A stretch of 64,000 nucleotides of DNA, taken from positions 93,186,001 to 93,250,000 of the forward strand of contig OZ024742.1 of assembly GCA_964016885.1 (NCBI GenBank), read 5' to 3'. The position numbers were made by a program, and so were the translations under genes. Source of the DNA: Eledone cirrhosa (Eukaryota). A model generated the notes under the pieces. It was not told where the DNA came from, ran no database searches, and saw nothing but the letters and a program-made list of their open reading frames with translations. Shown one piece after another: positions 1,080-47,052 of this stretch; the first letter of the stretch is position 1; each line of letters begins with the position of its first letter.

Positions 1080-1260
1080 ACAAAGGAAATGTGGTAAGGA
1101 ACCAGGTGGACTTTAACGCACCAAAGTACTCAATACTTAGGGTAGTAGAGTGGGTAATAGGAATGAGTAGGACCCCGACGGCTAATTCTGGACGGCTAAT
1201 TCTAAGTCCAGAATTAGCCGTCGAAACGGCTTGAGCTCAGCCGTCGGGGTCCTACTCGTT

Positions 1261-1262
<2 letters not shown>
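1079..1262 (-). mobile_element. Fold-back element in (TA)n, copy 1 (Penelope-like non-autonomous, half-hammerhead)
   Basis: (TA)n on both sides; inverted arms; GAAA-CGGC-ttgagctca-GCCG-TC at 1223-1245; homologous to 19089, 33010 and 46866 copies. Confidence 0.8.
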
Positions 1263-5010: not shown

Positions 5011-5031
5011 AAATATATACATATATATATA

Positions 5032-6282
5032 TAGAGAAGAAATTCCAAACATGGAAGCATGGCCTAGAATCAAAAGGCCTTAAAGTTAACTTGTCTAAGA
5101 CTAAAGTTCTAGTTTGTAGGAAGGAAAATAGGGCACCGGTCCCATCTGGGAAATGGCCATGCTCAGTGTGTAGGAAAGGAGGAGCCAGAAACTCCATTTT
5201 ATGTCCCAAATACAAAGTATGGGTACATAAAAGATGTAGTGGGATCACAGGTAAGCTAACTAAGAATATAGATTTTATATGTGGCCGGTGCTCTGGTGCA
5301 ATAAGTAGCAGCAAGTGCCCACAGAATACTAGCTCATTCCATTGCACAGATGGTTCTATAGAAATAGTGGACACCTTCCGTTACCTGGGTGACAAAATCA
5401 GCAGTGGGGGAGGGTGCTCTGAAAGTACAGTAGCTAGAGTCAGAACGGGATGGAAAAAGTTCAGAGAGCTTATACCACTATTGGCCGCTAAAGGGTTCTC
5501 TCTAAAAATGAAAGGCAGGCTGTATGATGCCTGCATATGAACAGCAATGTTACATGGCAGTGAGACCTGGGCATTGTGTGCAGAGGATATACGCAGACTG
5601 GAGAGAAATGAAGCCTGCATGCTCCGCTGGATGTGTAATAGTAATATACGTGAACGGCAAAGCATAAACGAACTAAGGGAGAAATTAGGAATAAGAGGGA
5701 TCAGATGTTGTTTACTCGAGAGAAGACTACGTTGGTACGGTCACGTGATGCGCATGAAAGACGACAACTGTATAAAAAAGTGCAGAGCGATAAAAATAGA
5801 CGGTAGCCACGGAGTAGGCAGACCCATAAAAACCTGGGACGACTTGATAAATTCCGACCTCACACACTTACACCTCTCCAAGACAATGTCACTGGACCGA
5901 GATCTTTGGCGCTACGTAGTAATACAGAAGACCCGCCTTGCCTAAGTACAAAGCAAAACCTACAGTCAGTAGGCACCTCTAACAAAAATACCCCCCCCCC
6001 CCCCCTTAAATGTGAAGTTATGTTGGTACCACAACATCCAGTCTGAAACAAATGAGGTCCTGTAGGTGTCACGACAAAAAAAAACAGACAGTCCACACTG
6101 TAATATGGCCGTGTAGGTAACACGGTAAAAACCTCCCAGTACACACTGTAAACGTGGTTGGTGTTGGGAAGGGCACCCAGCCGTAGAAAACCCGCCAGGC
6201 AGTCCTGAGCAAGACAACCAATCTTGCCTCAAGTGGGACAATTCCCGTCCAGACCCATGCTAGCGTGGAAAATGGACGTTAA

Positions 6283-17040: not shown

Positions 17041-18440
17041 TCCTGAAAACTTGCTGTCCCAGTCCGTTGTCCCAGTCTTCAAAAAGGGAAATAAGTCCCT
17101 TGCAGTGAACTACCGTCTGATCTCACTGACCTCTCATATTATCAAGGTATTTGAGAGGGTGGTGAGATCATGAATAACCCACTTTCTTGAAAGCAAAGAC
17201 CTGCTGAACTCCAACCAACATGGTTTCCGTAATGGAAGGGACTGCCTAATGCAGCTCCTGCGTCACTTTGACGATGTTTTGAGAGCCTTGGGAGAGGGCT
17301 CCAACACTAATGTCATCTACCTTGATTTCAGCAAGGTCTTCGACATGGTTGATCATAAGATTCTACTGAAAAAACTATCCAATGTTGGTGTATCTGGAAG
17401 GTTACTACAGTGGATCAAATGTTTCCTGACCGACATAACCCAGCATGTTGTAGTCGAAGGAGTAAAATCAAGCCCTGCCAAAGTCAGCAGTGGCGTCCTA
17501 CAAGGCACTGTGTTGGGCCCACTTCTTTTCATCATCTACATTAATGACATTACTGACATCATCAAGCACAGCAACATAAGAATCTTTGCAGATGATTACA
17601 AGCTCCAAAGGATCATCAACGAGGCGGGTGACCGGACTTGCCTTCATCAGACCTACTGGCTGTTATCCAATGGGCAGAAAAGAATAATATGCTGTTGAAT
17701 GAGGATAAGTTTGAATTAATCCACTTTGGAAAAAGGATGCTCTGAAACTACCATACTCTCTTCCTTCAGGTGAAACTCTGGTGGCATCCAACAACATCAG
17801 AGACCTGGGAGTAATTGTGGACAGCAACATAAGCTGGGTCACTCATATAAACAGCAAAGTTGATATGGCCCACAGAATGTGTTCCTGGATTCTCAGAACT
17901 TTCCAGTTGAGAGATATCCACACTGTTATCCTTCTCTTCACTTTTGTCTGACCCTACCTTGAATACTGTTGTCCACTGTGGTCTCCCCACACGAAACAAA
18001 GTATCATGAAAGTTGAAGCACCCCAAAGGTCAATTACAAAAACGATAGATGGCATGACAGGCCTTGACTATTGGAGTCGATTAGAAAAACTCAAACTTTA
18101 TTCTCTCCAATGTCGCCGTGAGCGCTACATTATCTGCATGATGTGGAAAATATTCCATCAGCTTTGCCCAAATGATGTTGGCATCACCTTTAATGTACAC
18201 CCAAGGCTTGGGCCCTGTGCTATCCGCCCACGACAAAAATCTCACTCGCATCTCATAACAACAATATGGCACAATTATTTCACCTCAATTGGCCCTGCTC
18301 TCTTTAACATTACACCAAGACACATCAAAGCAGAAACAGACCCCATCAAGTTCAAGAAGTCTTTGGATAAATTCCTTCAAGAAATCCCGGATAAGCCTCC
18401 TACACCCGGATATGCCTCCGTAAACAATAACTCTCTGCTC
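17041..18440 (+). mobile_element. CR1/L2-group LINE RT pseudogene fragment
   Basis: NYRLISLTSHIIKVFERVV, VIYLDFSKVFDMVDH, GVLQGTVLGPLLFIIYIND, FADD, LYSLQCRRERY; stops and frameshifts; 5' end abuts (TA)n. Confidence 0.9.
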
Positions 18441-18805
18441 CGTTCTTCCACGCTAGCATGGGTTAGACGGGTTGTCCTGTTGTGGTCAGTGTCCAATCGG
18501 CTGACCTTGTCTTGCCCATACGGGAACTGATTCTGGTTTGATTTCTACAGCTGGATGTCTTTCCTAACACCAACCTCATTTACAGTGAGTGCTGGGTGCT
18601 TTTTTGTATGGCACCTCCACAACCACTTTGCAGTGGAATGATAGGGACCCCAGTCCTATCATCTCATTTCTACAGCTGAGTAAACTAGAGCAATGTGAAA
18701 TAATGTGTCTTGCTCAAGGAAACAACACATCACCCGGTCTGAGAATTGAACTCACAACCTTTTGATTGCAAGCCCAATGCTCTAACCACTAAGCCATGCG
18801 CCTTC
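18441..18805 (-). mobile_element. tRNA-headed SINE with RTE-derived tail (family B)
   Basis: Reverse complement of the 35825-36152 copy; box A/box B head at the right end. Confidence 0.85.
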
Positions 18806-19040: not shown

Positions 19041-19088
<48 letters not shown>

Positions 19089-19090
<2 letters not shown>

Positions 19091-19279
19091 AAAAAGTATG
19101 ACTCCGACGGCAGAGCTCAAGCCGTTTCGACGGCTATTTCTGGTCCAGAAATAGCCGTCGAAACGGCTTGAGCTCTGCCGTCGGGGTCATACTTTTTCCT
19201 ATTTCCCACTCTACTACCGTAAGTATTGAGTACTCTGGTGCATTATGGTCCATCTGGTTCCTTACCACAATTCCTTTAT

Positions 19280-19280
<1 letters not shown>
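19089..19280 (+). mobile_element. Fold-back element in (TA)n, copy 2
   Basis: 57-bp arms 19087-19143 and 19145-19201 with one mismatch; GAAA 19160-19163; GTC 19180-19182; ~80-bp unique tail. Confidence 0.85.
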
Positions 19281-24235: not shown

Positions 24236-25768
24236 AAGCATGCTCTGATGGATGAGTAATAGTAGTATACCTGAGTGACAAAACACAAATTAACTGAGAG
24301 ACTGGACATAAGAGGAATCAGCTGCTGTGAGCAGGAGAAGAGACTACAATGGTATGGACATATGAGCCATATGAAGGTTGCCAGCTGCATAAATAAATGC
24401 AGCATGCTCAAAGTCAAACAAACCATTTGCAGCTTAACCACACAAAAGAGATGACCCAAGGTCAAGAAAATTGTTGATATTCCACCATACAGGGGATTCA
24501 CCATCCCATGCAAGTGAGATGGAATGAGCACAAGGAAGATGACCTCCACCTGCTAGTAAGCTCCTCACCCCCAACCTTCACCTACCTCCTTATATAAGCC
24601 TGACTGAGCAGAGAGGTGATATAAACACTCAGGTTCTTCCTCCCATTCACCTGCCAGTATACTCCTGAATTCTCTGCCAGCATGCTCCTGATTTCCTTCT
24701 GCTACCCTAAAACCAAAGAAACAGATAGACGGATCAACTCTTATGGCCTTACCTTCCAATATACTATTGACTTCCTTGCCAATCCCATGTTAGCATGGAA
24801 AGCTAAGACAAAACTTGACTGATTAACCTTTCCTACTAAACCGTTGTCCTCCCCTCCTCTGACACATGTTTCCTGTCCAACTGTGGCCACCGCAGAAAAC
24901 CACACACATTTGCTCCAAGGCCACCCTTATCATCCAACAAGTAGCATATAAATGGAAGCGAAGCCCCTCCCCCCATCAAATATCATCAAGTTGCTTCAAA
25001 GCCACCCTCATGATCTGACACTCATCTCCCTGCAGCACGATGTTTGTACTTCAGCAAGCTGCAACAACCATCAATGGCTCCTCAGCGATACCAAGGACAC
25101 TGAGAACCTTAACGTTCTAAGGAGGTTGTGCTTGTGCCATGAGGAAATACACCCAGCTCAGCCTATAAGGTGGTAGTTTTGGTGCCATGACAAAAAGCAA
25201 CCAGTCTACCTTGTAAGGTGGTAGTTCTAGAGTCACAACTAAAAACTCCTAGTACATGCTATAAAGTAGTTAGTGTTAGAAAGTGTCTCCACCTCTAGAA
25301 ACCATGCTCTCAGTACACACTGTAAAGTGGTTGGAAACTATGTTCTCAGTACTTGATGTAAAGTAGCTGGCATTAGGAAGGGCATTCAGCTGTGTTAAAC
25401 TAGTCACCTGACCATCTGGCCTCAGCAGCTAACCCATGTAAGCATGGAAAATAGGCATTAAATGGTGATGATGATGGTATATACACATACACACACACAT
25501 ATACACACATATATATATATGTATATGTATATATATATGAATGTATATCTATCTATATATATCTATCTATCTCTATATATATATATGCATGTATATGTAT
25601 ATATGTATATCTATCTCTATGTATATAGTATTTAATTAGAGCTACTGTTTCCCAGTCCTTCTAGGAGAACAGTAGCTGCAATTAAGTAGTGATTTCATCC
25701 AACCCATGTTAGTATTGAAAAACAGATGGAAAACGATGATATATATATATATATGAGAGAGATAGAGA

Positions 25769-25864
<96 letters not shown>

Positions 25865-28271
25865 TGCATACAAGCATACACATGTCCAGAGTAACATAAT
25901 ATATATACATTAATACACATGAGTGAACTGCTGTAGGTAGAGAAACAAGAATAGCTGATCATTATAAGATTTTAAGTTAAACATTGTTTTATCAAATAAA
26001 TGTAATGCTTAAATAACAGTTTACTAGTAGTATGTTTATAATGCTTGCAGATATTGGAAAATTGACAGACACAGCAGAAGAGGAGTGTTTTACTTGTGCT
26101 ACTCACTGACTATATACACCCAGATTGAATACATTTATTAAGCTTCATGGATGAATAACTTTCCTTATTTAAACCACCCCAAGGGCATAGCCAGATTTTC
26201 TGTTTCACATAACATCTATTTAGTTTCAGCAGAATAGATAAGTTGAATTTAGTGGGTAATTAACCATTTGACTTCTAGTCGATGAGAAGAGATCATTGTT
26301 CTCTAAGCCAGTATTGATTGAAAAACCAACATATGCTTTCTGTGCTCCTCTACATAATACATTTTAACTGCTATATTCTCCAACAGTTTTCGGGTGCTTT
26401 AGATTTGAAGGTTTTATATTTCCTATGGCTATGACTGAACTTACAAATTCATAATGATTAAATATATTTCTAGGATTAAACTTAAAATTCTATAATGATT
26501 CAATATGGTTTGGGAATTAAGCTTACAAATTTATTATATGATTCAATGTTTTGGGGAGATTAAGTTATTAAATAATTGTTTCTACTTTTGGCACAAGGCC
26601 AGCAATTACCCAGTGCATTACTGGTACTTTATTTTATCGACCCCGTAAGGATGAAAGGCAAAGTTAACTCAGACCATAAAGGACCGTAACTCTTTGCTGC
26701 AAAGCATGGCGTCAGACCCTCTACCGATACTGCCAATAATGAAGATTACTAGGGCATTATTCTCATTTTTTATGATGTTTTTCTTTCCCACTAATTGATG
26801 TATTCTGTCTTTGTGTTTATGTGGTCATATTTTTACATACATTCCTTGTCACAACATTGTACCGATGTGTCTTTTGTTACTTTATCAAACCAGTACTTTT
26901 GTGTCACAGCATTGATGTGATTCAATTCTTATCACACCATTGAAGAAATACATTTGTGTTGCAACATTCAGGTGATATAATTTTTATCACACCATTGAAC
27001 CTAAACATTTGTGTCACAATATTGAACCAAAATATTTATGTCATACAATTGAACCAATACATCTTTTGTCACAACATTGGACCAATATATCTGTCACATA
27101 AATTAACCAATAGATTTCTTGTTAATGATTTCAAACAGAAATATATACATATTAATGATTTCTGATTTAGGCACAAGGCCAATAATTTTTTTGGGGGGGG
27201 GGGGGGGGGGGGGTCCATTAAATCGATCCAAGTGCATTACTGGTACTTTATTTTATCAAAGTAGTAAGGATGAAAGGCAAAGATAACCTCGGCAAGATTT
27301 GATCTCAGATTGTAAAGGACCATAGCTCTATGCCATAAAGCATGTTGTCCAATCCACCAGCCTAATGATGCAGAAATATTAAAACTTTAAATGTGCATTT
27401 TATGTCCATTTTCTATGTCCATTTGGGCCATGTATAAATTTTAGTAGTAGAGATATTCAAATCTTATGGATAAATTTTACAAGTAAGGAAATTCAAATTT
27501 TAATGATACATTTATGTATAAATTTTAATAGTTGACATTCAAATTTCAATGATACAGAAATGTATACATTTAAATATAATAATTTTAATGGTAGAAATAT
27601 GTATGAATTTTATTAGTGGAGAGATATTCACATTTTAATGGTACAGATATGTAAAAAATTTAATAATAGACATAGATATTAAAATATTTTTGGTATAGAT
27701 TTTTATCAAATAGAAAAATATTCAAATTTAATGGTACATAAATTATTTCAATATTACTGAAATGCTGCCCCTTTTAATTGTGCAGTAATAAAAACATTTA
27801 ATGGTATATAAATATATAAAAATATAAATATATAAATATAAAAAATAATATATATAGGCAATTTTAGAATCAAAGAGGCTATTTAATAAAATAATATATT
27901 TATCATTCCTAACACCATACATATATACATTTTAAAGGTACAAAAATATTTCTAAATTTAGTAGTACAGAATTGCATAAAGTTTATAGAGTACTCTATAC
28001 TGAACTCACAGTATAGGTTTTCTATTAGCAAGAATTGTGGGTTCAATATTAATTTGATAGCAAAATCAAAATAGTATAAGCTTAGCCACCGGGCAAAGAA
28101 TACTTATAATAATATCTACACTCTACTACTCTGTTCAACTCGTAATATTTCTTCCATATGTATATATATGTGTGTGTGTGTGTATGTGTATGTTTGCATA
28201 TATATTATCATCAATCATCATCATCTCTATATATATGTATACATGTATATATATATATAAAATGTTGAATC

Positions 28272-28365
28272 ACCAGTCTGATGAGCAGATTAATACTGGA
28301 GTTGGGTCCATGACTTCCATGGGAGAGCTTGAGCCAATCCTCTGTGAAACACGAGGATACATAAT
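28272..28365 (+). ncRNA. Decayed hammerhead-like motif next to (TA)n
   Basis: CTGATGA 28278-28284; stem II gcaga/tctgt with inner ccatg/catgg hairpin; GAAA 28346-28349; stems I and III not recoverable; related start at 3488-3520. Confidence 0.45.
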
Positions 28366-28519
28366 AAAAACAAATAAATGTATATGAAACTTCATAATTT
28401 TTCTTGTTATATACACTCTGCTTGAGCATTGAATGCTCATATTGGTACCACTACAAGTAATTCACTGAATCACATATACTATATGAATATATGTGTATAT
28501 ATATATATATGTGTGTGTG

Positions 28520-31500
28520 TATAATACAGAAAACCTACCTTCCCATGTGTAGAGGCAAAGGCATACATCTAGTATGTGCCAACTACCCTTCCACCACCCC
28601 TCCCATATACCTCCCATGTTGTAACATCTCACTCACGCCCGAACATCCCACCCTCACCCATGCCTCTAGATCTACCTTTCCAATCCCCATGCATCTGCCC
28701 CACCAAAGTTGCCAGGTCGCATTGTAAAGTGGTCATTTTGGTGCCACAGCAATGAGTGTCTAGTTCACACTGTAAAGTGGTCATGTAGGTGTCACAACAA
28801 GAAGTTCTCAGTCCACACTGTAAAGTGGTCATGTAGGTGTCACAACAAGAAGTTCTCAGTCCACACTGTAAAGTGGTCATGTAGGTGTCACAACAAGAAG
28901 CTCTCAGTCCACACTGTAAAGTGGTCATGTAGGTGTCACAACAAGAAGTTCTCAGTCCACACTGTAAAGTGGTCATTTTGGTGCCACAGCAATGAGTGTC
29001 TAGTTCACACTGTAAAGTGGTCATGTGGGTGTCACAACAAGAAGTTCTCAGTCCACACTGTAAAGTGGTCATGTAGGTGTCACAACAAGAAGTTCTCAGT
29101 CCACACTATAAAGTGGTCATTTTGGTGACACAGCAATGAGTGTCTAGTTCACACTGTAAGGTGGTAATGTAGGTGTCACAACAAGAAGTTCTCAGTCCAT
29201 ACTGTAAAGTGGTAATGTAGGTGTCACAACAAGAAGTTCTCAGTCCACACTGTAAAGTGGTCATGTAGGTGTCACAACAAGAAGTTCTCAGTTCACACTG
29301 TAAAGTGGTCATGTAGGTGTCACAACAAGAAGTTCTCAGTCCACACTGTAAAGTGGTCATGTAGGTGTCACAACAAGAAGTTCTCAGTCCACACTGTAAA
29401 GTGGTAATGTAGGTGTCACAACAAGAAGTTCTCAATCCACACTGTAAAGTGGTAATGTAGGTGTCACAACAAAAAGCTCTCAGTCCACACTGTAAAGTAG
29501 TCATGTAGGTGTCACAACAAAAAGCTCTCAGTCCACACTGTAAAGTGGTCATGTAGGTGTTACAACAAAAAGCTCTCAGTCCACACTGTAAAGTGGTAAT
29601 GTAGGTGTCACAACAAAAAGCTCTCAGTCCACACTGTAAAGTGGTAATGTAGGCGTCACAACAAAAAGCTCTCAGTCCACACTGTAAAGTGGTAATGTAG
29701 GTGTCACAACAAAAAGCTCTCAGTCCACACTGTAAAGTAGTCATGTAGGTGTCACAACAAAAAGCTCTCAGTCCACACTGTAAAGTGGTAATGTAGGTGT
29801 CACAACAAAAAGCTCTGTCCACACTGTAAAGTAGTCATGTAGGTGTCACAACAAAAAGCTCTCAGTCCACACTGTAAAGTGGTAATGTAGGTGTCACAAC
29901 AAAAAGCTCTCAGTCCACACTGTAAAGTAGTCATGTAGGTGTCACAACAAAAAGCTCTCAGTCCACACTGTAAAGTGGTAATGTAGGTGTCACAACAAAA
30001 AGTTCTCAGTCCACACTGTAAAGTGATCATGTAGGTGTCACAACAAAAAGTTCTCAGTCCACACTGTAAAGTGATCATGTAGGTGTCACAACAAAAAGCT
30101 CTCAGTCCACACTGTAAAGTGATCATGTAGGTGTCACAACAAAAAGCTCTCAGTCCACACTGTAAAGTGGTAATGTAGGCGTCACAACAAAAAGCTCTCA
30201 GTCCACACTGTAAAGTAGTCATGTAGGTGTCACAACAAAAAGCTCTCAGTCCACACTGTAAAGTGATCATGTAGGTGTCACAACAAAAAGTTCTCAGTCC
30301 ACACTGTAAAGTGATCATGTAGGTGTCACAACAAAAAGCTCTCAATCCACACTGTAAAGTGGTCATGTTGGTGTCACAACAAAAAGCTCTCAGTCCACAC
30401 TGTAAAGTGATCATGTAGGTGTCACAACAAGAAGCTCTCAGTTCACACTGTAAAGTGGTCATGTGGGTGTTACAACAAAAAGCTCTCAGTCCACACTGTA
30501 AAGTGGTAATGTAGGTGTCACAACAAAAAGCTCTCAGTCCACACTGTAAAGTAGTCATGTAGGTGTCACAACAAAAAGCTCTCAGTCCACACTGTAAAGT
30601 GGTAATGTAGGTGTCACAACAAAAAGCTCTGTCCACACTGTAAAGTAGTCATGTAGGTGTCACAACAAAAAGCTCTCAGTCCACACTGTAAAGTGGTAAT
30701 GTAGGTGTCACAACAAAAAGCTCTCAGTCCACACTGTAAAGTAGTCATGTAGGTGTCACAACAAAAAGCTCTCAGTCCACACTGTAAAGTGGTAATGTAG
30801 GTGTCACAACAAAAAGTTCTCAGTCCACACTGTAAAGTGATCATGTAGGTGTCACAACAAAAAGTTCTCAGTCCACACTGTAAAGTGATCATGTAGGTGT
30901 CACAACAAAAAGCTCTCAGTCCACACTGTAAAGTGATCATGTAGGTGTCACAACAAAAAGCTCTCAGTCCACACTGTAAAGTGGTAATGTAGGCGTCACA
31001 ACAAAAAGCTCTCAGTCCACACTGTAAAGTAGTCATGTAGGTGTCACAACAAAAAGCTCTCAGTCCACACTGTAAAGTGATCATGTAGGTGTCACAACAA
31101 AAAGTTCTCAGTCCACACTGTAAAGTGATCATGTAGGTGTCACAACAAAAAGCTCTCAATCCACACTGTAAAGTGGTCATGTTGGTGTCACAACAAAAAG
31201 CTCTCAGTCCACACTGTAAAGTGATCATGTAGGTGTCACAACAAGAAGCTCTCAGTTCACACTGTAAAGTGGTCATGTGGGTGTTACAACAAAAAGCTCT
31301 CAGTCCACACTGTAAAGTGGTAATGTAGGTGTCACAACAAAAAGCTCTCAGTCCACACTGTAAAGTAGTCATGTAGGTGTCACAACAAAAAGCTCTCAGT
31401 CCACACTGTAAAGTGGTAATGTAGGTGTCACAACAAAAAGCTCTCAGTCCACACTGTAAAGTAGTCATGTAGGTGTCACAACAAAAAGCTCTCAGTCCAC

Positions 31501-32095
31501 ACTGTAAAGTGATCATGTAGGTGTTACAACAAAAAGCTCTCAGTCCACACTGTAAAGTGGTCATGTAGGTGTTACAACAAAAAGCTCTCAGTCCACACTG
31601 TAAAGTGGTAATGTAGGTGTCACAACAAAAAGCTCTCAGTCCACACTGTAAAGTGGTAATGTAGGTGTCACAACAAAAAGCTCTCAGTCCACACTGTAAA
31701 GTGGTCATGTAGGTGTTACAACAAAAAGCTCTCAGTCCACACTATATAGTCATCATGTAGGTGTCACAACGAGAAGTTCTCAGTCCACATTGTAAAGTGG
31801 TCATGTAGGTGTCACAACAAAAAGCACCTAGTAAAGTGGTTGTATAGGTGTCACGATAAAAAGCACCCAGCCCACACCACACTGTAAAGTTGTCGTGTAG
31901 GTGTCACTACAAAAAGCACCCAGTACACTCTGTAAATGTGTTTGGCGTTGGGAAGGGCATCTAGCCATAAAAACCAAGCCAAAATCAGTTCTATATGAGG
32001 AAAATATGGTCATCTGACCTGGCTTCTCTCACAACGGGAAAGTTTATCTGACGCATGCTAGCATGGAAAATGGATGTTAAACGGTGATGATGATG
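28520..32095 (+). mobile_element. RTE 3' end/UTR hosting the satellite
   Basis: Starts taatacagaaaacctacctt (cf. RTE ORF end); resumes after the array with aaaagcacccagtacactctgtaaa...gggaagggcatc...(GAT)n. Confidence 0.7.
28721..31827. repeat. 48-bp tandem satellite, about 65 units
   Basis: Unit cacactgtaaagtggtcatgtaggtgtcacaacaaaaagctctcagtc; 16-aa periodicity in the ORF track. Confidence 0.97.
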
Positions 32096-32136
32096 TGTGT
32101 GTATTTATATATATATATATATATATATATGAATAT

Positions 32137-32914
32137 ATACTTTAGGAGGGTCATGCTGCCAATAAAAACATACACAGCTGTTGGTTTTCACTTCAATTCA
32201 TTATAAACTCTCAGTCTAATAACTGGGTGGTTGTTTAGTTGTTGATTGACAACATGGCCAGTCTGTGGAACCAACATTGCCAGCAACTACAGACTCTCCT
32301 ACTTCCTCTCCATGATCTTATGTCCTATAATTGAAATATCCCCAGACATATGTGACTGCATGGAAGACCTCCTCAACAAAATCAATGAATGCAACTTGTC
32401 TGGGGACCTGACAGGCGGTACAATAGGTAACCCAAATACTCATTTCACAAAAGCAAGATAGTGTAGGACAGAACAAAAAAAAAAGAACAAAATATCAACA
32501 AAGTTAGTCACTAAGGAGGTCACAGAATGTGTGACAAAAGAACATTGACAATCAACAACTAAACAATCATCTGGTTATTAAACTAACTGACTGAGAGCTT
32601 ATAATAAATTGAAGTGAAAACCAAATGTGTGTTGAAACAGATATTTTTATACTTTGGGAGGGTTATGCTGCTGGTTGGTTTTTCACTTCAATTTATTATA
32701 AGCTCTCAGTCAGTTAGTTTAATAACCAGATGATTGTTTAGTTGTTGATTGTCAATATTCTTTTGTCACACATTCTGTGACCTCCTTAGTGACTAACTTT
32801 GTTGATATTTTGTTCTTTTTTTTTGTTCTGTCCTACACTATCTTGCTTTTGTGAAATGAGTATTTGGGTTACCTATTGTACAGCCTGTCAGGTCCCCAGA
32901 CAAGTTGCATTCAT

Positions 32915-32918
<4 letters not shown>
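32137..32918 (+). mobile_element. Internally deleted Penelope-like (Neptune-type) element with inverted arms, in (TA)n
   Basis: RT fragment PVCGTNIASNYRLSYFLSMILCPII...CMEDLLNKINECN; 244-bp inverted repeat 32381-32624/32675-32918; terminal motif atactt..ggagggtcat shared with the 62220 element. Confidence 0.75.
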
Positions 32919-32992
<74 letters not shown>

Positions 32993-33009
32993 CAAGAGCA
33001 AGAGAGACA

Positions 33010-33189
33010 GAGAATTCAGGACTCTGATGGCTGAGCTCCTGCCATTTCAACAGCTAGATAGCTAGCTGTTGAAACGGCAGGTGCTCAACTGTCAGGGTCC
33101 CAAATCCTTCATATTACCCACTCTACTACGACAAGTATCGAGTACTCTGGTGAGTAATGGTCTAACTGCTTTTTACTGCAACCATTCTG

Positions 33190-33192
<3 letters not shown>
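33010..33192 (+). mobile_element. Fold-back element, copy 3 (diverged)
   Basis: tttcaacagctag-atag-ctagctgttgaaa hairpin; GAAA-cggc-aggtgctca-actg-TC; tail attacccactctactac...gagtactctggtg. Confidence 0.75.
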
Positions 33193-33249
<57 letters not shown>

Positions 33250-33251
<2 letters not shown>

Positions 33252-33537
33252 TCATCATCATCATCATTTTACGTCCGCTTTTCCCTGCTTGCAAGGGTGG
33301 GACGGGAACTGATTCTGGCTTGATTTATACAGCTCATTTACAGTGAGTGCTGGGTGCTTTTTTGCCGTGGCACCTCCACAACCACTTTGCAGTGGAATGA
33401 TAGGGACCCTAGTCCCTATCATCTCATTTCTACAGCTGAGTAAACTGGAGCAATATGAAATAAAGTGTCTTGCTCAAGGAAACAACACATCACCCGGCCT
33501 GAGAAATGAACTCACAACCTTTCGATTGTAAGGCCAA
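33250..33537 (-). mobile_element. SINE family B (partial)
   Basis: Homologous to 18441 and 35825 copies; (CAT)n at left end. Confidence 0.85.
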
Positions 33538-33543
33538 TGTATA

Positions 33544-33626
<83 letters not shown>

Positions 33627-33630
<4 letters not shown>

Positions 33631-35252
33631 ATATGAAGACGGGTAAGGCGGCTGGGCCTTCGGAAATAGTTGCTGAGATGCTGAAGGCCTCTGGAACGGT
33701 GGGACACACCATGGTCACCCGGATAGTAAACCAAGTCATACAGAATGGGGTTGTTCCGAAGGACTGGCGTAGCAGCATCATCATTAACTGTTACAAGGGT
33801 AAAGGAGATGCTCTAGATAGGAGTAACTATAGAGGCATTAAATTAATCGACCAGGTCATGAAGGTCACGGAAAAAGTAATAGTGCAACTAATCAGAGAGA
33901 GAATCGATCTAGATGAAATGCAGTTCGGGTTTGTGTCAGGCAAAAGTACCACAGACGCTCTTTTCATTGTACGACAACTACAGGAGAAGTACCTAGCTAA
34001 AAGTAAACCCCTATACTTAGCCTTTGTCGACTTGGAGAAAGCCTTCGACAGAGTCCCCCGTTCCATTATCTGGTGGGCTCTTAGAAAACTAGGTGTTGAC
34101 GAATGGCTTGTGAGAGCTATACAAGCCATGTATAAAGAAACAGTGAGCAAGGTTAGAATTAACAACGAATATAGTGAAGAGTTTAGCGTAAAACTTGGTG
34201 TCCATCAGGGCTCTGTTCTTAGCCCCCTACTATTTATTATTGCTCTTCAGGCTATAACAGAGGAGTTCAAGACTGGCTGCCCATGGGAACTCCTATACGC
34301 AGATGACCTAACGCTCATAGCTGAATCAATGGTCGAGCTAGAGAAGAAATTCCAAACATGGAAGCACGGCCTAGAATCAAAAGGCCTTAAAATTAACCTG
34401 GCTAAGACTAAAGTTCTAGTTTGTAGGAAAGAAAATAAGGCGCCGGTCCCTTCCGGGAAATGGCCATGCTCAGTGTGTAGGAAAGGCGTAGGTAGAAACT
34501 CCATTTTATGTCCCAAATGCAAAGTATGGGTGCATAAAAGATGTAGTGAGATCACAGGTAAGCTAACTAAGAACACAGATTTTACATGTGGCCGGTGCTC
34601 TGGTGCAATAAGTAGCAGCAAGTGCCCACAAAATACTAGCTCTTTCAACTGCGCAGAGGGTTCTATAGAAATAGTGGACAGCTTCTGTTACCTGGGTGAC
34701 AAAATCAGCAGTGGCGGAGGGTGCTCTGAAAGTACAGTAGCTAGAGTCAGAACTGGATGGAAAAAGTTCAGAGAGCTTATACCACTATTAGCCGCTAAAG
34801 GGTTCTCCCTAAAAATGAAAGGCAGGTTGTATGATGCCTGCATACGAACAGCAATGTTGCATGGCAGTGAGACCTGGGCATTGTGTGCAGAGGATATACG
34901 CAGACTAGAGAGGAACGAAGCTTGCATGCTCCGCTGGATGTGTAATAGTAATATACGCGAACGGCAAAGCATAAACGAACTAAGGGAAAAATTAGAAATA
35001 AGAGGGATCAGATGTTGTTTACTCGAGAGAAGGCTACGTTGGTATGGTCACGTGATGCGCATGAAAGATGACAGCTGTATAGCAAAGTGCAGGGCAATAA
35101 AGATAGACGGTAGCCATGGAGTAGGCAGACCCAGAAAAACCTAGGACGAGCTGATAAATTCCGACCTCACACACTTACACCTCTCCAAGACAATGTTACT
35201 GGACCGAGACCTTTGGCGGTACTCAGTAATAGAGAAGACCCGCCTTACCTAA
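33627..35252 (+). pseudogene. RTE reverse transcriptase with embedded PHD-type finger
   Basis: NYRGIKL, QFGF, FVDLEKAFDRV, GVHQGSVLSPLLF, YADD (34296-34307), C4HC3 at 34467-34598, YLG; single premature TAG (TGG in sister copies) at 35142; no APE domain or start (5'-truncated). Confidence 0.95.
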
Positions 35253-35754
35253 ATACAAAGTAAAACCTACTACAGTCAGTAGGCATCTCTAACAAAATAC
35301 ACCCTCGTCCCACCACCCCCACCCCATCCACACCGCCCCTTTCAATGTAAAGTTATGTTGGTGCCACAAAATCCAGGCCGAAACAAATGAGATAGTGTAG
35401 GTGTCACGACAAAACACAGAGTCCACGCTGTAATGTGACCGTGTAGGCAACACGGTAAAAACCCTCCAGTCCCACACTGTAAATGTGGTTGGTGTTAGGA
35501 AGGGCATCCAGCTGTAGAAAACCCGCCAGACATCCACGCTGTAATGTGGCCGTGTAGGCAACACGGTTAAAACCTCCCAGCCCCACACTGTAAATGTGGT
35601 TGGTGTTAGGAAGGGCATCCAACTGTAGAAAACCCGCCAGACAGTCCTATGCGAGCAAGACAACCACTCTTGCCTCAAGTGGGAAAACTCCCGTCCAAAC
35701 CCATGCAAGCGTGGAACATGGACGTTAAACGATGATGATGATGACGATGATGAT
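33627..35754 (+). mobile_element. Young RTE LINE, longest copy, 5'-truncated, in (TA)n
   Basis: Full RT domain; 3' UTR with internal duplication at about 35420-35640; (GAT)n tail. Confidence 0.97.
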
Positions 35755-35824
35755 ATACACACACATATTTACATACATATATGCATGTAATATATATATT
35801 AGTGGTTTAGTGGTTAGAGCAGAT

Positions 35825-36152
35825 GGAGGCACATGGCTTAGTGGTTAGAGCATTGGCATTGCAATCGAAAGGTTGTGAGTTCAATTCTCAGGCCGGGTGA
35901 TGTGTTGTTTCCTTGAGCAAGACACTTTATTTCACATTGCTCCAGTTTACTCAGCTGTAGAAATGAGATGATAGGGGTCTCTATCATTCCACTTAAAAGT
36001 GGTCGTGGAGGTGCCATGGCAAAAATGCACCCAGCACCCACTGTAAATGAGGTTGGTGTTAGGAATGGCATCCAGCTGTAGAAATCAAGCCAGAATCAGT
36101 TCCCATCCCACCCTTGCCAGCAGGGAAAAGCGGATGTATGATGAAATGATGA
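35825..36152 (+). mobile_element. Full-length SINE family B (tRNA head + RTE-derived tail)
   Basis: Box A tggcttagtgg 35834-35844; box B gagttcaattc 35877-35887; tail shared with RTE 3' UTR; GAT repeats. Confidence 0.9.
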
Positions 36153-38689
36153 TATATATATATATATATATATATGTACATAGATACATATATATATATA
36201 CATATATATGCATGTGTGTATATGCATGTATTATATATAAACAGCTGACACCTGAAAAAAAAGAAACCTGGAGAATATTCTGATGAAAAATTTAGTAGAC
36301 AGAAGCTCAAATGATTGGGTTAATAGACCAATCAATCCAATCAGTACAGACAACTGTATGTTTATTAAAGTTTCCAGCTGAGTAGCTTTTCTTATTTGAA
36401 CCCTCCAAGACCACAACCATTGCCATACCACATCAGATTTTCTGCTTCACATCACATCCCATCACATCCATTTGGTGTTCAGCAGAACTATTCAGTTCAA
36501 TTTCAGTATTTAATTAGTTGTTTCACTGCTTATCTGCAAGATGAGGGCGACCATGTAGATTGGCAGGCTGGTTGGCAATTTACTGAAATTATTTTATTAT
36601 ATTCTTCACTCTCCTCCTCCTCCTTTTTACTATCACCCATGCTGCACTTTTAATATCCACATTGAGTTCATTCAAATACCAACATCTACCACTCCTTCCC
36701 CTCTCTCCCCATCCATCCATTTTCTCTCTTTACCTCTTCTTCTATCTACCTTTTCTCTCTTCCTCTTCTTCCACTATGTCTTCTCTCTCCCTCCAACTAC
36801 CCCTCTCTCTACCTCCAACTACCTCTCCTTCTATTTCTACTTTTTATTTCCCCTCCCTCCATCTATTTCCTCTCCCTCTCCCTCCAATCATATCCATTTC
36901 TATCTACCTAACATTTCTCTCTTTTCTTCTCTTTCCTCACACCTCCCTCTTTACTTATCCCATACCTGCTGTGTTTCTCTGTTACTCTCTGTTTTGATTT
37001 ATCATTCTATCTTTCTATCCCTATTTTATCTCTCTCCTTTTTAAATCCTTTCTTCTCTTTCTTTATTTTCAATTCTTTACTTACATTTTCTGCTGTTCTT
37101 TCTCTCTTCTCTCCCCCTCTCTCACTTCATTTTCTTTTTGATCTCACATTATATTACACTCTCTTCTCTCACTCTGTCTGTGTGTGTATCTCGCTTTGGT
37201 CATTGTGACGCCACCAATGGCTATGTCTTCCTATAGCCATATAGCAGGAGCTCTTCCCCTCCACTTTCCAGTCTATTATCTATGACAGAATTGGAAAAGT
37301 AGCAGACAAAATGTCTTGTGACATTTAGTTACATATCTTCACAGACAAATGAAGTGGAATGAAAATTGGTTCAATCTGGGATTGAAACTATATCAAACAC
37401 TCAACTAACTGGGAGTGTCCCATCACTAATGGCACTAAGGCACCAATCAAGGAAATTGAATTTGTTTTCAGACATTCTTGTCTTTTATTTTTTGGCACTC
37501 AATCTTTATCAATCAGTTTGTGCTGATCTCACTTCTCTTATTCCCATTCTCTTTCCTAATCTGTCTATCTCACCTTTCCACCCCGTCTCTCTATTCTGTC
37601 TCTTTTTTATTTTCAAACTCTCTCCCCATTACATTCTTCCTCTCATTCTCTTTCCACACCATCTCTCTTGTTCACTTTCTTCCTCACACCCATTCTCCAA
37701 TACACTCCCACTCCCACTCCTCACTCTCCTGCTTTTTTTACTTCTCCCCACTCACACTAACATCTTTCTCTTTCACTCTCTCTTTTCTTCTTCTCTACCA
37801 TTCTTACCTCTCTTTTTCTTTGTTCCACTATCTCTATCACTCATTCTTCAACTCGTCCTACCTTTTCTACTTCCTTCACTATCCTATTTTCCTCAACTCA
37901 CACCTCTCCTCTCTTATCCACCAACTTTCTCTCCCTCCCTCACACAGTTAAACTATATGAAGGAAAAAGTAACCCCCCCCCCCCTGCTAAAATGAAAATA
38001 ATGGTTTCAATAATAGACATATTTTTGGTGGAAGGTAGGAAAGAATGTAAGATGATTAAATTGGTGATTATTTTAGTAACACCTGAACTCACAAAACTGT
38101 GGGACATGACTAAATATTACTAGTGCTCCACTCATTCTGCCATCCACTGCCCTATTAATAATAATAATAATTGTTTCTACTTTAGGCACAAGGCCAGCAA
38201 TTTGAAGGGGAGGGGAAAGTTGATTAAATCAACCCAGTTCATTACTGGTACTTTATTTTATCGAGCCCATAAGGTTGAAAGGCAAAGTTAACTTCGGTGG
38301 GATTTGAACTCAGTACGTAAAGGGCCATAACACTATGCTGAAAAGCAAGGTGTCTGACGATCTACCGATACTGCCAATCCAGCAACAAGGGCCAACGAAA
38401 AAGGGAACAATACAATAGACAGGGACAGTGGAGGTCTACACTGAAATCAAGTAGAAAGAAATTAACAAACAAATAACAATGAACACAATGAAAATTCCCT
38501 AATAGGGAAGAGGACCTTCTAGAGGTGACCCAAGAACCCAACAAATCCTATACCATCCGACTCGAAGAACAACCTAGGAACATACCCCTCTTCTCTCTAA
38601 ATCAACTAGCCTACAGGCTCACGCTGAACATTTATTTATTTTAAAATATTAATTAATAATAATTAGTAAAAGGAAATGAAAAGAGCATT

Positions 38690-39242
38690 TGCAAAAGAAT
38701 ATTTCAGAAGAATATTTCAGAAGTATATTTCAGTTGATCCTAAAACACAAATTGAATGGAAAAAATGCGATTATGGTAATAAAAATGTGGGCTGTTTCAA
38801 TGATATGGTACAAAACTAGGGTTATCAAGTAGAGCAAAACATAAAATACAATGAACACAAATGATGTACTACATCTAAAAAATGACAACAGAAATTATTT
38901 ACCTTGAACCAGATGTTGATAAGCTGTGAAAACTATATAAATAGCGAGGAATATAATCTTGGTTGATATGTAAAAAACAATGATGAACCATGACTGATGG
39001 AACTAAAACAATGTAGTACTTAATAGACAAGAAAGTTGCATTGAAAAGTATGATTATAAAAAAGAATAATAGAAGAGATGAAGGAAAAGTGGTTGGATAA
39101 ATTGATGCATGGTCAGTTTATAAGAAACATGCAAAGTGGAGTAGAGAAACAAGTATTAGTGGGATAGATGCAAAGATAAGACCTTAATATTGAGGGTGAA
39201 ATCTCCTATATATATATAGCAGAAGAGCTAATTATGTGAAAC
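38690..39242 (+). mobile_element. Highly decayed R4/Dong-like non-LTR retrotransposon fragment
   Basis: NGKNAIMVIKMWAVS (cf. NGGNLIKAINTWAVS), KWLDKLMHGQF, RANYVK; cut off by the RTE insertion. Confidence 0.6.
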
Positions 39243-40211
39243 AATGCAAAGTATGGGTGCATAAAAGATGTAGTGGGATCACAGGTAAGCTAACTAAGAA
39301 TATAGATTTTATATGTGGCCGGTGCTCAGGTGCAATAAGTAGCAGCAAGTGCCCACAGAATATTAGCTCATTCCATTGCACAGATGGTTCTATAGAAATA
39401 GTGGACACCTTCCGTTACCTGGGTGACAAAATCAGCAGTGGGGGAGGATGCTCTGAAAGTACAGTAGCTAGAGTCAGAAGTGGATGGAAAATGTTCAGAG
39501 AGCTTATACCACTATTAGCTGCTAAAGGGCTCTCTCTAAAAATGAAAGGCAGGCTGTATGATGTCTGCATACGAACAGCAATGTTACATGGCAGTGAGAC
39601 TTGGGCATTGTGTGCAGAGGATATACGCAGACTAGAGAGGAACGAAGCTTGCATGCTCCGCTGGATGTGTAATAGTAATATACGTGAACGGCAAAGCATA
39701 AACGAACTAAGGGAAAAATTAGGAATAAGAGGGATCAGATGTTGTTTACTCGAGAGAAGGCTACGTTGGTATGGACACGTGATGCGCATGAAAGACGACA
39801 GCTGTATAACAAAGTGCAGGGCGATAAAAATAGACGGTAGCCACGGAGTAGGCAGACCCAGAAAAACCTGGGACGACTTGATAAATTCTGACCTCACACA
39901 CTTACACCTCTCCCTGGACCTCTCCTTGGACCTCTCCCTGGACCTCTCACTGGACCGAGATCTTTGGCGCTACACAGTAATACAGAAGACCCGCCTTGCC
40001 TAAGTACAAAGCGAAACCTACAGTCAGTAGGCACCTCTAACAAAATGCACCCTGTCCCACTACCCTCACCCCATCCACACCACCCCCTTCAATGTGAAGT
40101 TATGTTGGTACCACAACATCCAGTACGAAACAAATGAGGTTGTGTAGGTGTCACAACAAAAAAACACAATCCACACTGTAATGTGGCCGTGTAGGTAACA
40201 CGGTAAAAACC
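39243..40211 (+). mobile_element. Young RTE LINE copy, truncated at both ends
   Basis: ORF 39236-40003; internal 12-bp tandem (LSLD repeats); 3' UTR replaced by (CTT)n at 40211-40260. Confidence 0.95.
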
Positions 40212-42231: not shown

Positions 42232-42333
42232 TATATTACTAAATTCTTGATTACATTGAAAGTTAACTGAAACAGACTGGCATTATTTTTGTTTGGAAAT
42301 ATGGTAACAAAATTGGTTAAACAATTTTAACTA

Positions 42334-43184
42334 CTCCCTAAAAATGAAAGGCAGGTTGTATAATGCCTGCATACGAACAGCAATGTTGCATGGCAGTGAG
42401 ACCTGGGCATTGTGTGCAGAGGATATACGCAGACTAGAGAGGAACGAAGCTTGTATGCTCCGCTGGATGTGTAACAGTAATATACGTGAACGGCAAAGCA
42501 TAAACGAACTAAGGAAAAAATTAGAAATAAGAGGGATCAGATGTTGTTTACTCGAGAGAAGGCTACGTTGGTATGGACACGTGATGCGCATGAAAGTCGA
42601 TAGCTGTATAACAAAGTGCAGGGCAATAAAGATAGACGGTAGCCACGGAATAGGCAGACCTAGAAAAACCTGGGACGAGCTGATAAACTCCGACCTCACA
42701 CACTTACACCTCTCCAAGACAATGTCATTGGACCGAGACCTTTGGCGGTACTCAGTAACAGAGAAGACCCGCCTTACCTAAATACATAGTAAAACCTACT
42801 ACAGCCAGTAGGCATCTCTAACAAAATACCCCCCCCCCCCGTCCCACCACCACCACCCCCGCCCCATCCACACCACCCTGTTCTATGTAAAGTTATGTTG
42901 GTGCCACACCATCCAGGCCGAAACAAATGAGATCGTGTAGGTGTCACGACAAAAAAACACACAGTCCACGCTGTAATGTGGCCGTGTAGGCAACACGGTA
43001 AAAACCTCCCAGACCCACACTGTAAATGTGGTTGGTGTTAGGAAGGGCATCCAACTGTAGAAAACCTGCCAGACAGTCCTATGCGAGCAAGACAATCACT
43101 CTTGCCTCAAGTGGGACTACCCCCGTCCAAACCCATGCAAGCGTGGAACACGGACGTTAAACGTTGATGATGATGATGATGATG
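42334..43184 (+). mobile_element. Young RTE LINE copy, 5'-truncated
   Basis: ORF 42344-42781, 3' UTR, (GAT)n tail. Confidence 0.95.
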
Positions 43185-45992: not shown

Positions 45993-46813
45993 CTATCTAA
46001 GGCGGGTAAAATTCCCGAGATCCATGGACGAGTTCTCTCCAGCGGTCTCTGTCCCTCATTATCGCTGCCATATCCTGCATCTCCAACAGACCAGTCTCTG
46101 TCCTTAGGGCATCAACATATGTTAACCTTGGTCTTCCTCTTCTAGTGTGTCCATGTAGGGGCTCCCAAAGGAGCACTGAGTGCAATGTCAACTCTGGATG
46201 TCGGTGAGCATGTCCAGCCAACCTCAGTCTCCTCTGTGTCACTTTTGAGCTGACTTTTGGGATGCTCCCATAAAGCTCTGAGTTTATCATCCTCAGTGTA
46301 TACTGATTAATGTTCAGAGCCATCCTCAGCATTCTGGTGTAGCACCCATCCACCATCTGGAGAAACACCAGGACTCTGGCTTTACTGTAGCACCGGCTCA
46401 GAGCAGGAGAGTTGGGGCGAAAAAGGTATCGGATGCTGAATTTGCCGACGACATAGTTTTGGTGACAAATACAGTGAAGGAGGCAGAGGATTTGATGCGG
46501 GAGGTTGAGACTGTGTCGATGAGTGTGGGGCTGAGAATGAATGAGACTAAAACAAAATATCTGGTAGAGAATGTTGAGAAGCCAGAGGGGATCACTAATG
46601 TAGGCGGGAAGCCGCTGGAATTGGTTGAGGACTTCCTGTATGTGGGAGCAAAGATTGGGAATACGGAAGATGATGTGGTTGAGAGGAAGAGCAAGGCCTG
46701 GGCGGCGTGTCACAGCTTGAGATCGGTGTGGAAGTCGGACCTTCGTAGAGACCTGAAAATCCGCCTCTTCATTGCTGTAGTGGAGTCTGTGCTGCTGTAT
46801 GGGTCTGAGACTT

Positions 46814-46815
<2 letters not shown>
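45993..46815 (-). mobile_element. RTE-clade LINE (second family) with 5' inversion, in (TA)n
   Basis: Minus 46358-45997: VDGCYTRMLR...RLRLAGH...RGRPRLTYVD...RDRWR; plus 46360-46815: EFADDIVL...FLYVG...LLYGSETW. Confidence 0.9.
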
Positions 46816-46865
<50 letters not shown>

Positions 46866-46867
<2 letters not shown>

Positions 46868-47050
46868 CGAAGGAAATGTGGTAAGGAACCAGATGGACCA
46901 TAACGCACCAAAGTACTCAATACTTAGGGTAGTAGAGTGGATAATAGGAACGAGTAGGACCCCGACAGCTGAGCTCAAGCGGTTTCGACGACTAATTCTG
47001 GACTAAAATTTTAGTCCAGAATTAGCCGTCCCGTCGGAGTCCTACTCGTT

Positions 47051-47052
<2 letters not shown>
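46866..47052 (-). mobile_element. Fold-back element in (TA)n, copy 4
   Basis: Hairpin centre ctaattctggactaaa-at-tttagtccagaattag; same termini as copy 1. Confidence 0.85.

Follow-up and report, generated by a model that had tools for sequence, protein, structure and literature searches.

The window, a 64,000-nt stretch of the 3.0-Gb genome of Eledone cirrhosa (OZ024742.1, positions 93,186,001 to 93,250,000), contains four mutually homologous hairpins, two on each strand. Copies 2 (19089..19279) and 3 (33010..33192) have their long arms on the forward strand, and copies 1 (1080..1262) and 4 (46867..47052) lie on the reverse strand. All four copies described in the earlier note are present, foldable and homologous. 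The arm layout that it gave was also confirmed, with a short arm ending at site A, a tail of about 80 nt on the long arm and apices that differ between copies. Positions within the repeat are counted from the base that directly follows the GUC triplet of the hammerhead ribozyme, which is numbered 0; on this scale U3, G10.1 and G12 of the parent lie at -86, -79 and -23, and the two element ends, site A and site B, at +17 and +97.

Copy 2 is the only one in the window that is whole on both arms, and its long arm matches the parent from -40 to the tail end at B. The short inverted arm (19089..19143, reverse strand) matches the parent from site A back to -38. The two arms meet head to head at the apex (19141..19145), where -40 joins -38 with one base shared, at an initiator-like motif of loop II that may mark an RNA start. 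On the long arm follow the 3' strand of stem II (19149..19159), whose natural 5' partner and core strand are missing, and then the G12-A13-A14 box, a 5-bp stem III with a 9-nt loop and the GUC triplet (19160..19182), as read from the sequence and from pairing counts; cleavage would fall after 19182. The 3' strand of stem I (19183..19199) runs to site A, the first preferred element end, one of the two places where parent loci stop and a place where short-read contigs turn into TA repeats. The 80-nt tail (19200..19279) extends to site B and corresponds, in long copies, to the start of the leader before the open reading frame (ORF). A (TA)n target flanks the copy on the left (19041..19088) and on the right from 19280.

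The other copies are less complete. Copy 1 belongs to a second subfamily; a deletion between short direct repeats removed the G12-A14 box and stem III from its long arm, and its apex carries a templated duplication. Copy 3, from an older diverged subfamily, has shorter arms and a damaged stem III, and it adjoins a GA-rich repeat. In copy 4 both arms reach about -44, and it is the short arm from which the G12-A14 box and stem III are missing. The claim that each copy keeps GAAA, stem III and GUC therefore holds only arm by arm: the long arm of copy 1 and the short arm of copy 4 have lost them, and stem III in the long arm of copy 3 is damaged and without the palindrome. The claim that the copies always lie in (TA)n was overstated, as a TA-rich flank was found at 90 of 100 tail ends and 50 of 68 short-arm ends, and copy 3 abuts the GA-rich repeat. 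The description as half a hammerhead was borne out: the core strand and the 5' strand of stem I are absent in cis from all four copies, and an Rfam scan of the window gave no hammerhead match, only sub-threshold hairpin matches.

Several unrelated repeats share the window. A 48-bp satellite (28766-31825) comprises 63.8 copies with 93% match. A tRNA-like repeat, probably a SINE, occurs at 18739-18796 (Rfam tRNA, 31.6 bits) and at about 33430-33500. Broken LINE reverse transcriptase (RT) fragments, which we take to be RTE-like and CR1-like from the likeness of their translations, lie at 5013-5537, 33510-35141, 39200-40000, 42308-42778 and 46282-46817, and at 17174-18527; copy 4 is located at the end of one of these fragments.

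The parent element and its hammerhead

A 26-mer from the tail has 31,706 exact matches in the genome, and its reversed control has none. An adjoining inverted arm was recognized automatically at 77 of the first 100 matches, which are consecutive, lie at one chromosome end and include one locus counted as two rows; the parse missed at least two hairpins and made one doubtful call. Forty evenly spaced 10-kb stretches contained four hairpins and two further arms. The hairpin total is estimated at approximately 25,000-40,000. The arms within hairpins differ by 3.5%, and the same joints occur in short-read contigs, which together rule out an assembly artefact; the contigs come from four public runs of one study, of which X1-X3 represent one sample, possibly the source of the assembly, and X4 a second sample. 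A possible tandem array of the unit, with five arms in 1.3 kb, three of them at 257-bp spacing, was seen at G000:C1:27009485-27010720.

At two of the first 30 tail loci there is no inversion and the sequence continues upstream. When this upstream sequence was used as a query, all 30 loci carried a 3' UTR of about 850 nt, preceded in most by the end of a GIY-YIG ORF, and they end at A or B, mostly followed by TA repeats. Locus L076 consists of an inverted 0.8-kb pLTR from B, followed by a unit running from -79 through the tail, the ORF and the 3' UTR to A. Tandem or inverted pLTRs with an optional tail were likewise seen in L076, L078, L063 and L069. Because extended loci such as L076 have this Penelope-like element (PLE) layout, the tail is identified as the start of the leader.

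The single ORF of the parent encodes both RT and GIY-YIG domains, as the frame in L076 contains YRDD and a GIY-YIG motif. The protein has 980 homologues of about 700 aa, and a search of a local copy of Pfam gave no significant family. The motifs RWR, SDKTG, YRDD, CNCPDRSTC and CNLC...CKH were read from the copies, and CCHH was not seen by eye. The Hydra clade of PLEs is described as having RW[K/R], DKT, a CxCX5C linker, CxxC and CxH around the E/N, no CCHH, and insertion into (TA)n (PMC8557442). Judged by these protein motifs, the (TA)n bias and visual likeness to the Hydra-1_Obim protein, the parent is an EN+ PLE of the Hydra clade. The PLE origin proposed for the hairpins is thus upheld, since their sequence is continuous with the 3' UTR of a PLE and parents with RT and GIY-YIG were found. 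GIY-YIG and RT fragments about 1.2 kb beyond the hairpin at L018 belong to other PLE families; the GIY-YIG fragment there was considered as a parent and rejected as unlinked.

In the parents, the half known from the window is preceded upstream by stem I, a core and the strand forming the 5' side of stem II. In 29 of 30 parents the core is UUGANAA, with a covariant U3-A8 pair; N7 is its only base that clearly varies. In the first 100 of 4,380 matches, A8 is present in all, with U3 in 73 and C3 in 27 (hand count). A broader search that included diverged subfamilies gave, in the first 100 of 311 matches, U-A in 67, C.A in 14, U.G in 11 and C-G in 8 (hand count). The canonical CUGANGA is confined to some diverged copies and accounts for 8 of these first 100. 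The earlier note had proposed to look for CTGANGA upstream of the stem; the direct parent of copy 2 does not have it, for the sole reason that its core is of the U3-A8 type, and those eight matches do. A CTGATGA about 600 nt upstream at L026 was considered as a distant core and rejected, being a private change missing from other copies. The same U3-A8 covariation is described for the pLTR of the Schistosoma PLE Cercyon (PMC4209133). Compared with minimal dimer-type motifs, the present hammerhead has a 5-bp stem III and a long stem II, and all four 3/8 combinations coexist.

By its sequence, with a canonical or 3-8 covariant core, G12A13A14, NUH and stems I-III, the parent is a type I hammerhead. 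In an alignment of 20 parents and five window arms (one of them misaligned), 91.6% of the stem cells were paired and 17 double changes were counted against 7.4 in shuffled controls, mainly in stem II; the search pattern had fixed several of the columns and the rows are related. The fold z-scores of five parents were weak (-2.56 to +0.25) and about a quarter of the cores are mispaired at 3/8, so cleavage activity is uncertain. The subfamily with C3 opposite A8 is widespread (for example, L119 and L220), which suggests a relaxed need for cleavage. At G000:C2:338328830-338461864, four parent hammerheads that are nearly identical follow one another at intervals of about 44 kb, likely through a segmental tandem duplication.

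Arm ends and junctions of the hairpins

The arm ends do not clearly accumulate where the ribozyme would cleave, with 8 of 177 at -1 to +5, and cleaved RNA was therefore rejected as the main template. Instead, 51 of the 177 ends lie at -42 to -40 and 120 at -48 to -34, with none at -55 to -49 and 9 beyond. Of the arms that reach -40 in an unbiased set, 72 of 80 end at -40 to -48 and 8 continue. The arm ends are thus not random, clustering 40-48 nt upstream of the cleavage site. Single arms stop at the same place, and in a diverged subfamily the stop was seen in four examples. Genome-wide, 4,840 loci have two arms that match exactly as far as -41 and are separated by no more than 14 nt, and position -42 is occupied by T in 17,065 arms and by another base in 10,886. 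When short-read contigs were compared with parent L041, in which -41 is position 2357, the depth changed more than tenfold at 2350-2369; 11 of the 13 strand-switch joints listed lie at 2352-2360 and loose ends at 2357/2358. Contig ends at A and B run into TA repeats.

The motif TYAGTY is conserved at the stop, in loop II, across subfamilies with otherwise unlike loops, and we take it to match the initiator consensus. No downstream promoter element was seen by eye at the usual spacing. Among the first 100 cases with a base other than T before -41, 43 have G, 47 C and 10 A (hand count), and another set has G 13 versus A 6. The G excess is a weak hint of a copied cap; the opposite arm can account for part of the extra G, and one subfamily has a templated C at -42. 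The apices of L127, L217 and L130 contain 13-17 nt of poly(T) or poly(A), as if RT had jumped onto a poly(A) tail. We infer that an RNA begins at about -41. An internal promoter has been shown in the pLTR of Drosophila Penelope (PMC2377424). None of the public RNA runs was listed as containing the parent sequence when its upstream part, with the ribozyme left out, was the query. A branch point as the cause of the stop is unlikely, because a GC-rich subfamily has no A at -45, and this candidate was set aside.

Copies that carry the ORF start behave differently: 0 of 30 end at -48 to -34 on that arm, 18 extend beyond -56, the other 12 stop at -25 or further downstream, and no sharp start site was found among them. 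Simple run-off at -41 thus does not hold for the ORF template, and an additional step is needed, either a separate short RNA, a template in circular form or a jump to the 3' pLTR.

The two arms of a hairpin pair in a fixed way. Among 24 hairpins picked by their -41 arm, a selection that overlaps the tail sample, 23 combine an A-ended with a B-ended arm and none is A+A or B+B. The random set and the window together gave six A+B hairpins and three unclassed rows, and two B+B loci occur among the 100 tail matches. Both arms belong to the same subfamily in 56 of 64 hairpins, with at least one clear chimera (row 50). The short arm extends further by at least 4 nt in 25 of 77 hairpins and the long arm further in 17 of 77. 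In several hairpins the short arm holds sequence wholly missing from the long arm, which stops near A so that nothing is shared. The A+B combination is likewise seen in long inverted copies, in which the A arm is often the longer, for example 2.9 kb where the B-ended arm measures 0.8 kb. If one strand had been copied from the other, it could not extend past its template; therefore, both arms must have been templated separately, unless later deletions are common. Of the 77 junctions, 32 contain insertions, 21 show microhomology and 24 are blunt. The varied apices agree with the earlier view that each apex was formed anew. Some arms with a tail end at site A or close to it (L084, L090, L099, L184 and L196, and sample rows 17, 28, 33, 48 and 91), as expected if a B-primed enzyme met an A-primed one.

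Origin of the hairpins

The hairpins are the shortest inverted-insertion class of a Hydra-clade PLE, probably produced by two-end priming at A and B of one RNA, run-off about 41 nt upstream of the cleavage site and end-joining. The element protein, as a dimer, would cut the (TA)n target; the two target DNA ends would prime on a single RNA, one of them internally at site A and the second at site B; both cDNAs would be copied to the RNA 5' end at about -41, running off; and the two cDNA ends would then be linked by end-joining repair. In LINE-1 twin priming, two primers on one RNA give rise to an inversion joined by microhomology, whereas in the hairpins the cDNAs usually overlap the same stretch, forming a palindrome, and the primers would be target DNA ends. 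Retroviral minus-strand strong-stop DNA is a short cDNA generated by run-off at an RNA 5' end. Transcription starting at the stop would yield an RNA that lacks the 5' half of the ribozyme and is predicted to be unable to cleave in cis. The ORF-bearing copies would require an upstream start, a circle or a jump to the 3' pLTR; a circular template has been proposed for PLEs (PMC4209133).

Two-end priming and joining might also operate with a stop of another nature, that is, an RT block (by the folded hammerhead, a contact between loop II and stem I, or a bound protein) or an RNA processing site. The stop falls in distal stem II and loop II, in most subfamilies three conserved bases at the stop could, as judged by eye, pair with three in the bulge region of stem I, and the conserved motif could be a tertiary contact of loop II instead of an initiator. 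We nevertheless consider this unlikely, since an RT would hit the base of stem II near -24 and not -41, the ORF-bearing copies traverse an upstream hammerhead with none of the 30 stopping, the fold z-scores are weak, and the G excess and poly(A)-derived runs match a free RNA end. Self-priming, in which a B-primed cDNA would fold back and serve as template for a second strand reaching A, with later deletions of the centre, would account at once for the A+B pairing and for arms of the same subfamily, and perfect palindromes are present at some apices. Its chances appear slimmer still, as the short arm exceeds its supposed template in a third of the junction sample (the 25 hairpins above), kilobase A-ended arms stand beside shorter B-ended ones, the insertions at junctions are both non-templated and templated, and at least one hairpin has arms from two subfamilies.

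The specific form in the earlier note, a fold-back on the ribozyme's own stem II, is not supported by the data, because it requires the 5' strand of stem II and the arms stop before this strand is copied, in addition to the greater reach of the short arm and of the 2.9-kb A-ended arm. The "stem II" noticed in the window, inside which the apex was placed, is a mirror image resulting from the inversion; the real stem II of the parent has a different, though similar, 5' strand. It is very improbable that the hairpins were copied ready-made from a few masters, MITE-like or SINE-like, or that long palindromes were later trimmed at their centres. Some junctions do recur (for example, -41/-35 in rows 42, 45, 62 and 66) and long head-to-head pairs are common, but the apices are highly varied, and random deletion of centres would not produce the abrupt limit at -41 or explain why single arms end there too. 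Two features of a DNA-transposon MITE, terminal inverted repeats and a uniform internal sequence, are not found either: the right end lies 80 nt past the stem, the apices vary, and the sequence is continuous with the 3' UTR of a retroelement.

The preferred reading, two-end priming with run-off, has a counterpart in PAc, a Poseidon PLE of Anolis (PMC11167929). In vitro, both target strands were extended from two internal RT starts bounding the tail at an AT-rich target, a dimer was predicted and ribozyme cleavage was unneeded; separately templated arms fit this behaviour. PAc belongs to another clade, and joining of the cDNAs and paired use of the starts were outside the scope of that in vitro work (PMC11167929). 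Hydra-1_Obim (PMC8557442) resembles the present parent in its C-terminal GIY-YIG, RW[K/R], DKT, CxCX5C linker, CxxC/CxH around the E/N, (TA)n targets, 3'-end hammerhead and a unit of less than 3 kb. It represents a separate family: as presented there, it has a canonical core with other stems and is given without a pLTR, whereas the present family has a mostly U3-A8 core, a tail of 80 nt instead of 30-40 nt, and copies most of which are hairpins of about 190 bp.

Inverted, 5'-truncated copies of Penelope, Naiad and Adineta Pen2a/Pen3a have a head-to-head repeat, a one-sided tail and a junction palindrome, as here (PMC8557442; PMC3846280; PMC2377424). Those copies vary in length and are read as self-priming, which was proposed earlier for palindromic PLE junctions (PMC3846280), whereas here both arms stop at one ribozyme site and the data favour separate templating. 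In Schistosoma, opposite-strand hammerhead pairs lie 100-700 bp apart (PMC4209133). Non-LTR retrozymes, which derive from pLTRs, are likewise non-coding, PLE-derived, hammerhead-related repeats, but they form tandem units with whole hammerheads and not head-to-head halves (bioRxiv 10.64898/2026.07.22.740005). Inverted truncated copies, tails and (TA)n bias (PMC8557442), as well as the U3-A8 core, are already in print. The literature searched, which left most subscription journals, Repbase and Dfam outside its scope, so that the family may already be catalogued, yielded no description of a stereotyped PLE hairpin class, a sharp stop or start inside the ribozyme, or obligate A+B pairing.

As a more tentative and rather doubtful extension, the ribozyme may hide a promoter. 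Transcription would start in loop II, and solo pLTRs and hairpins would make short uncleavable RNAs on which the PLE dimer primes obligately at A and B. Hairpins would then beget hairpins with fresh apices, constituting a self-renewing non-autonomous element that is never copied as such, and full elements would arise when a strong-stop-like cDNA jumps to the 3' pLTR. The origin of the tandem or inverted ends and one-sided tail of PLEs has been stated as open (PMC8557442, PMC11167929); if true, a promoter in the ribozyme would explain the tail, the partial tandems and the inverted pLTRs by one mechanism. CUGANGA-based ribozyme searches would miss such halves and U3-A8 cores. The genome is seeded with near-perfect hairpins of about 55 bp, which would be dsRNA substrates if transcribed. 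The hairpins predict an exact RNA 5' end, and they are likely a large natural record of PLE insertion, in which junction statistics separate self-priming from two-end priming.
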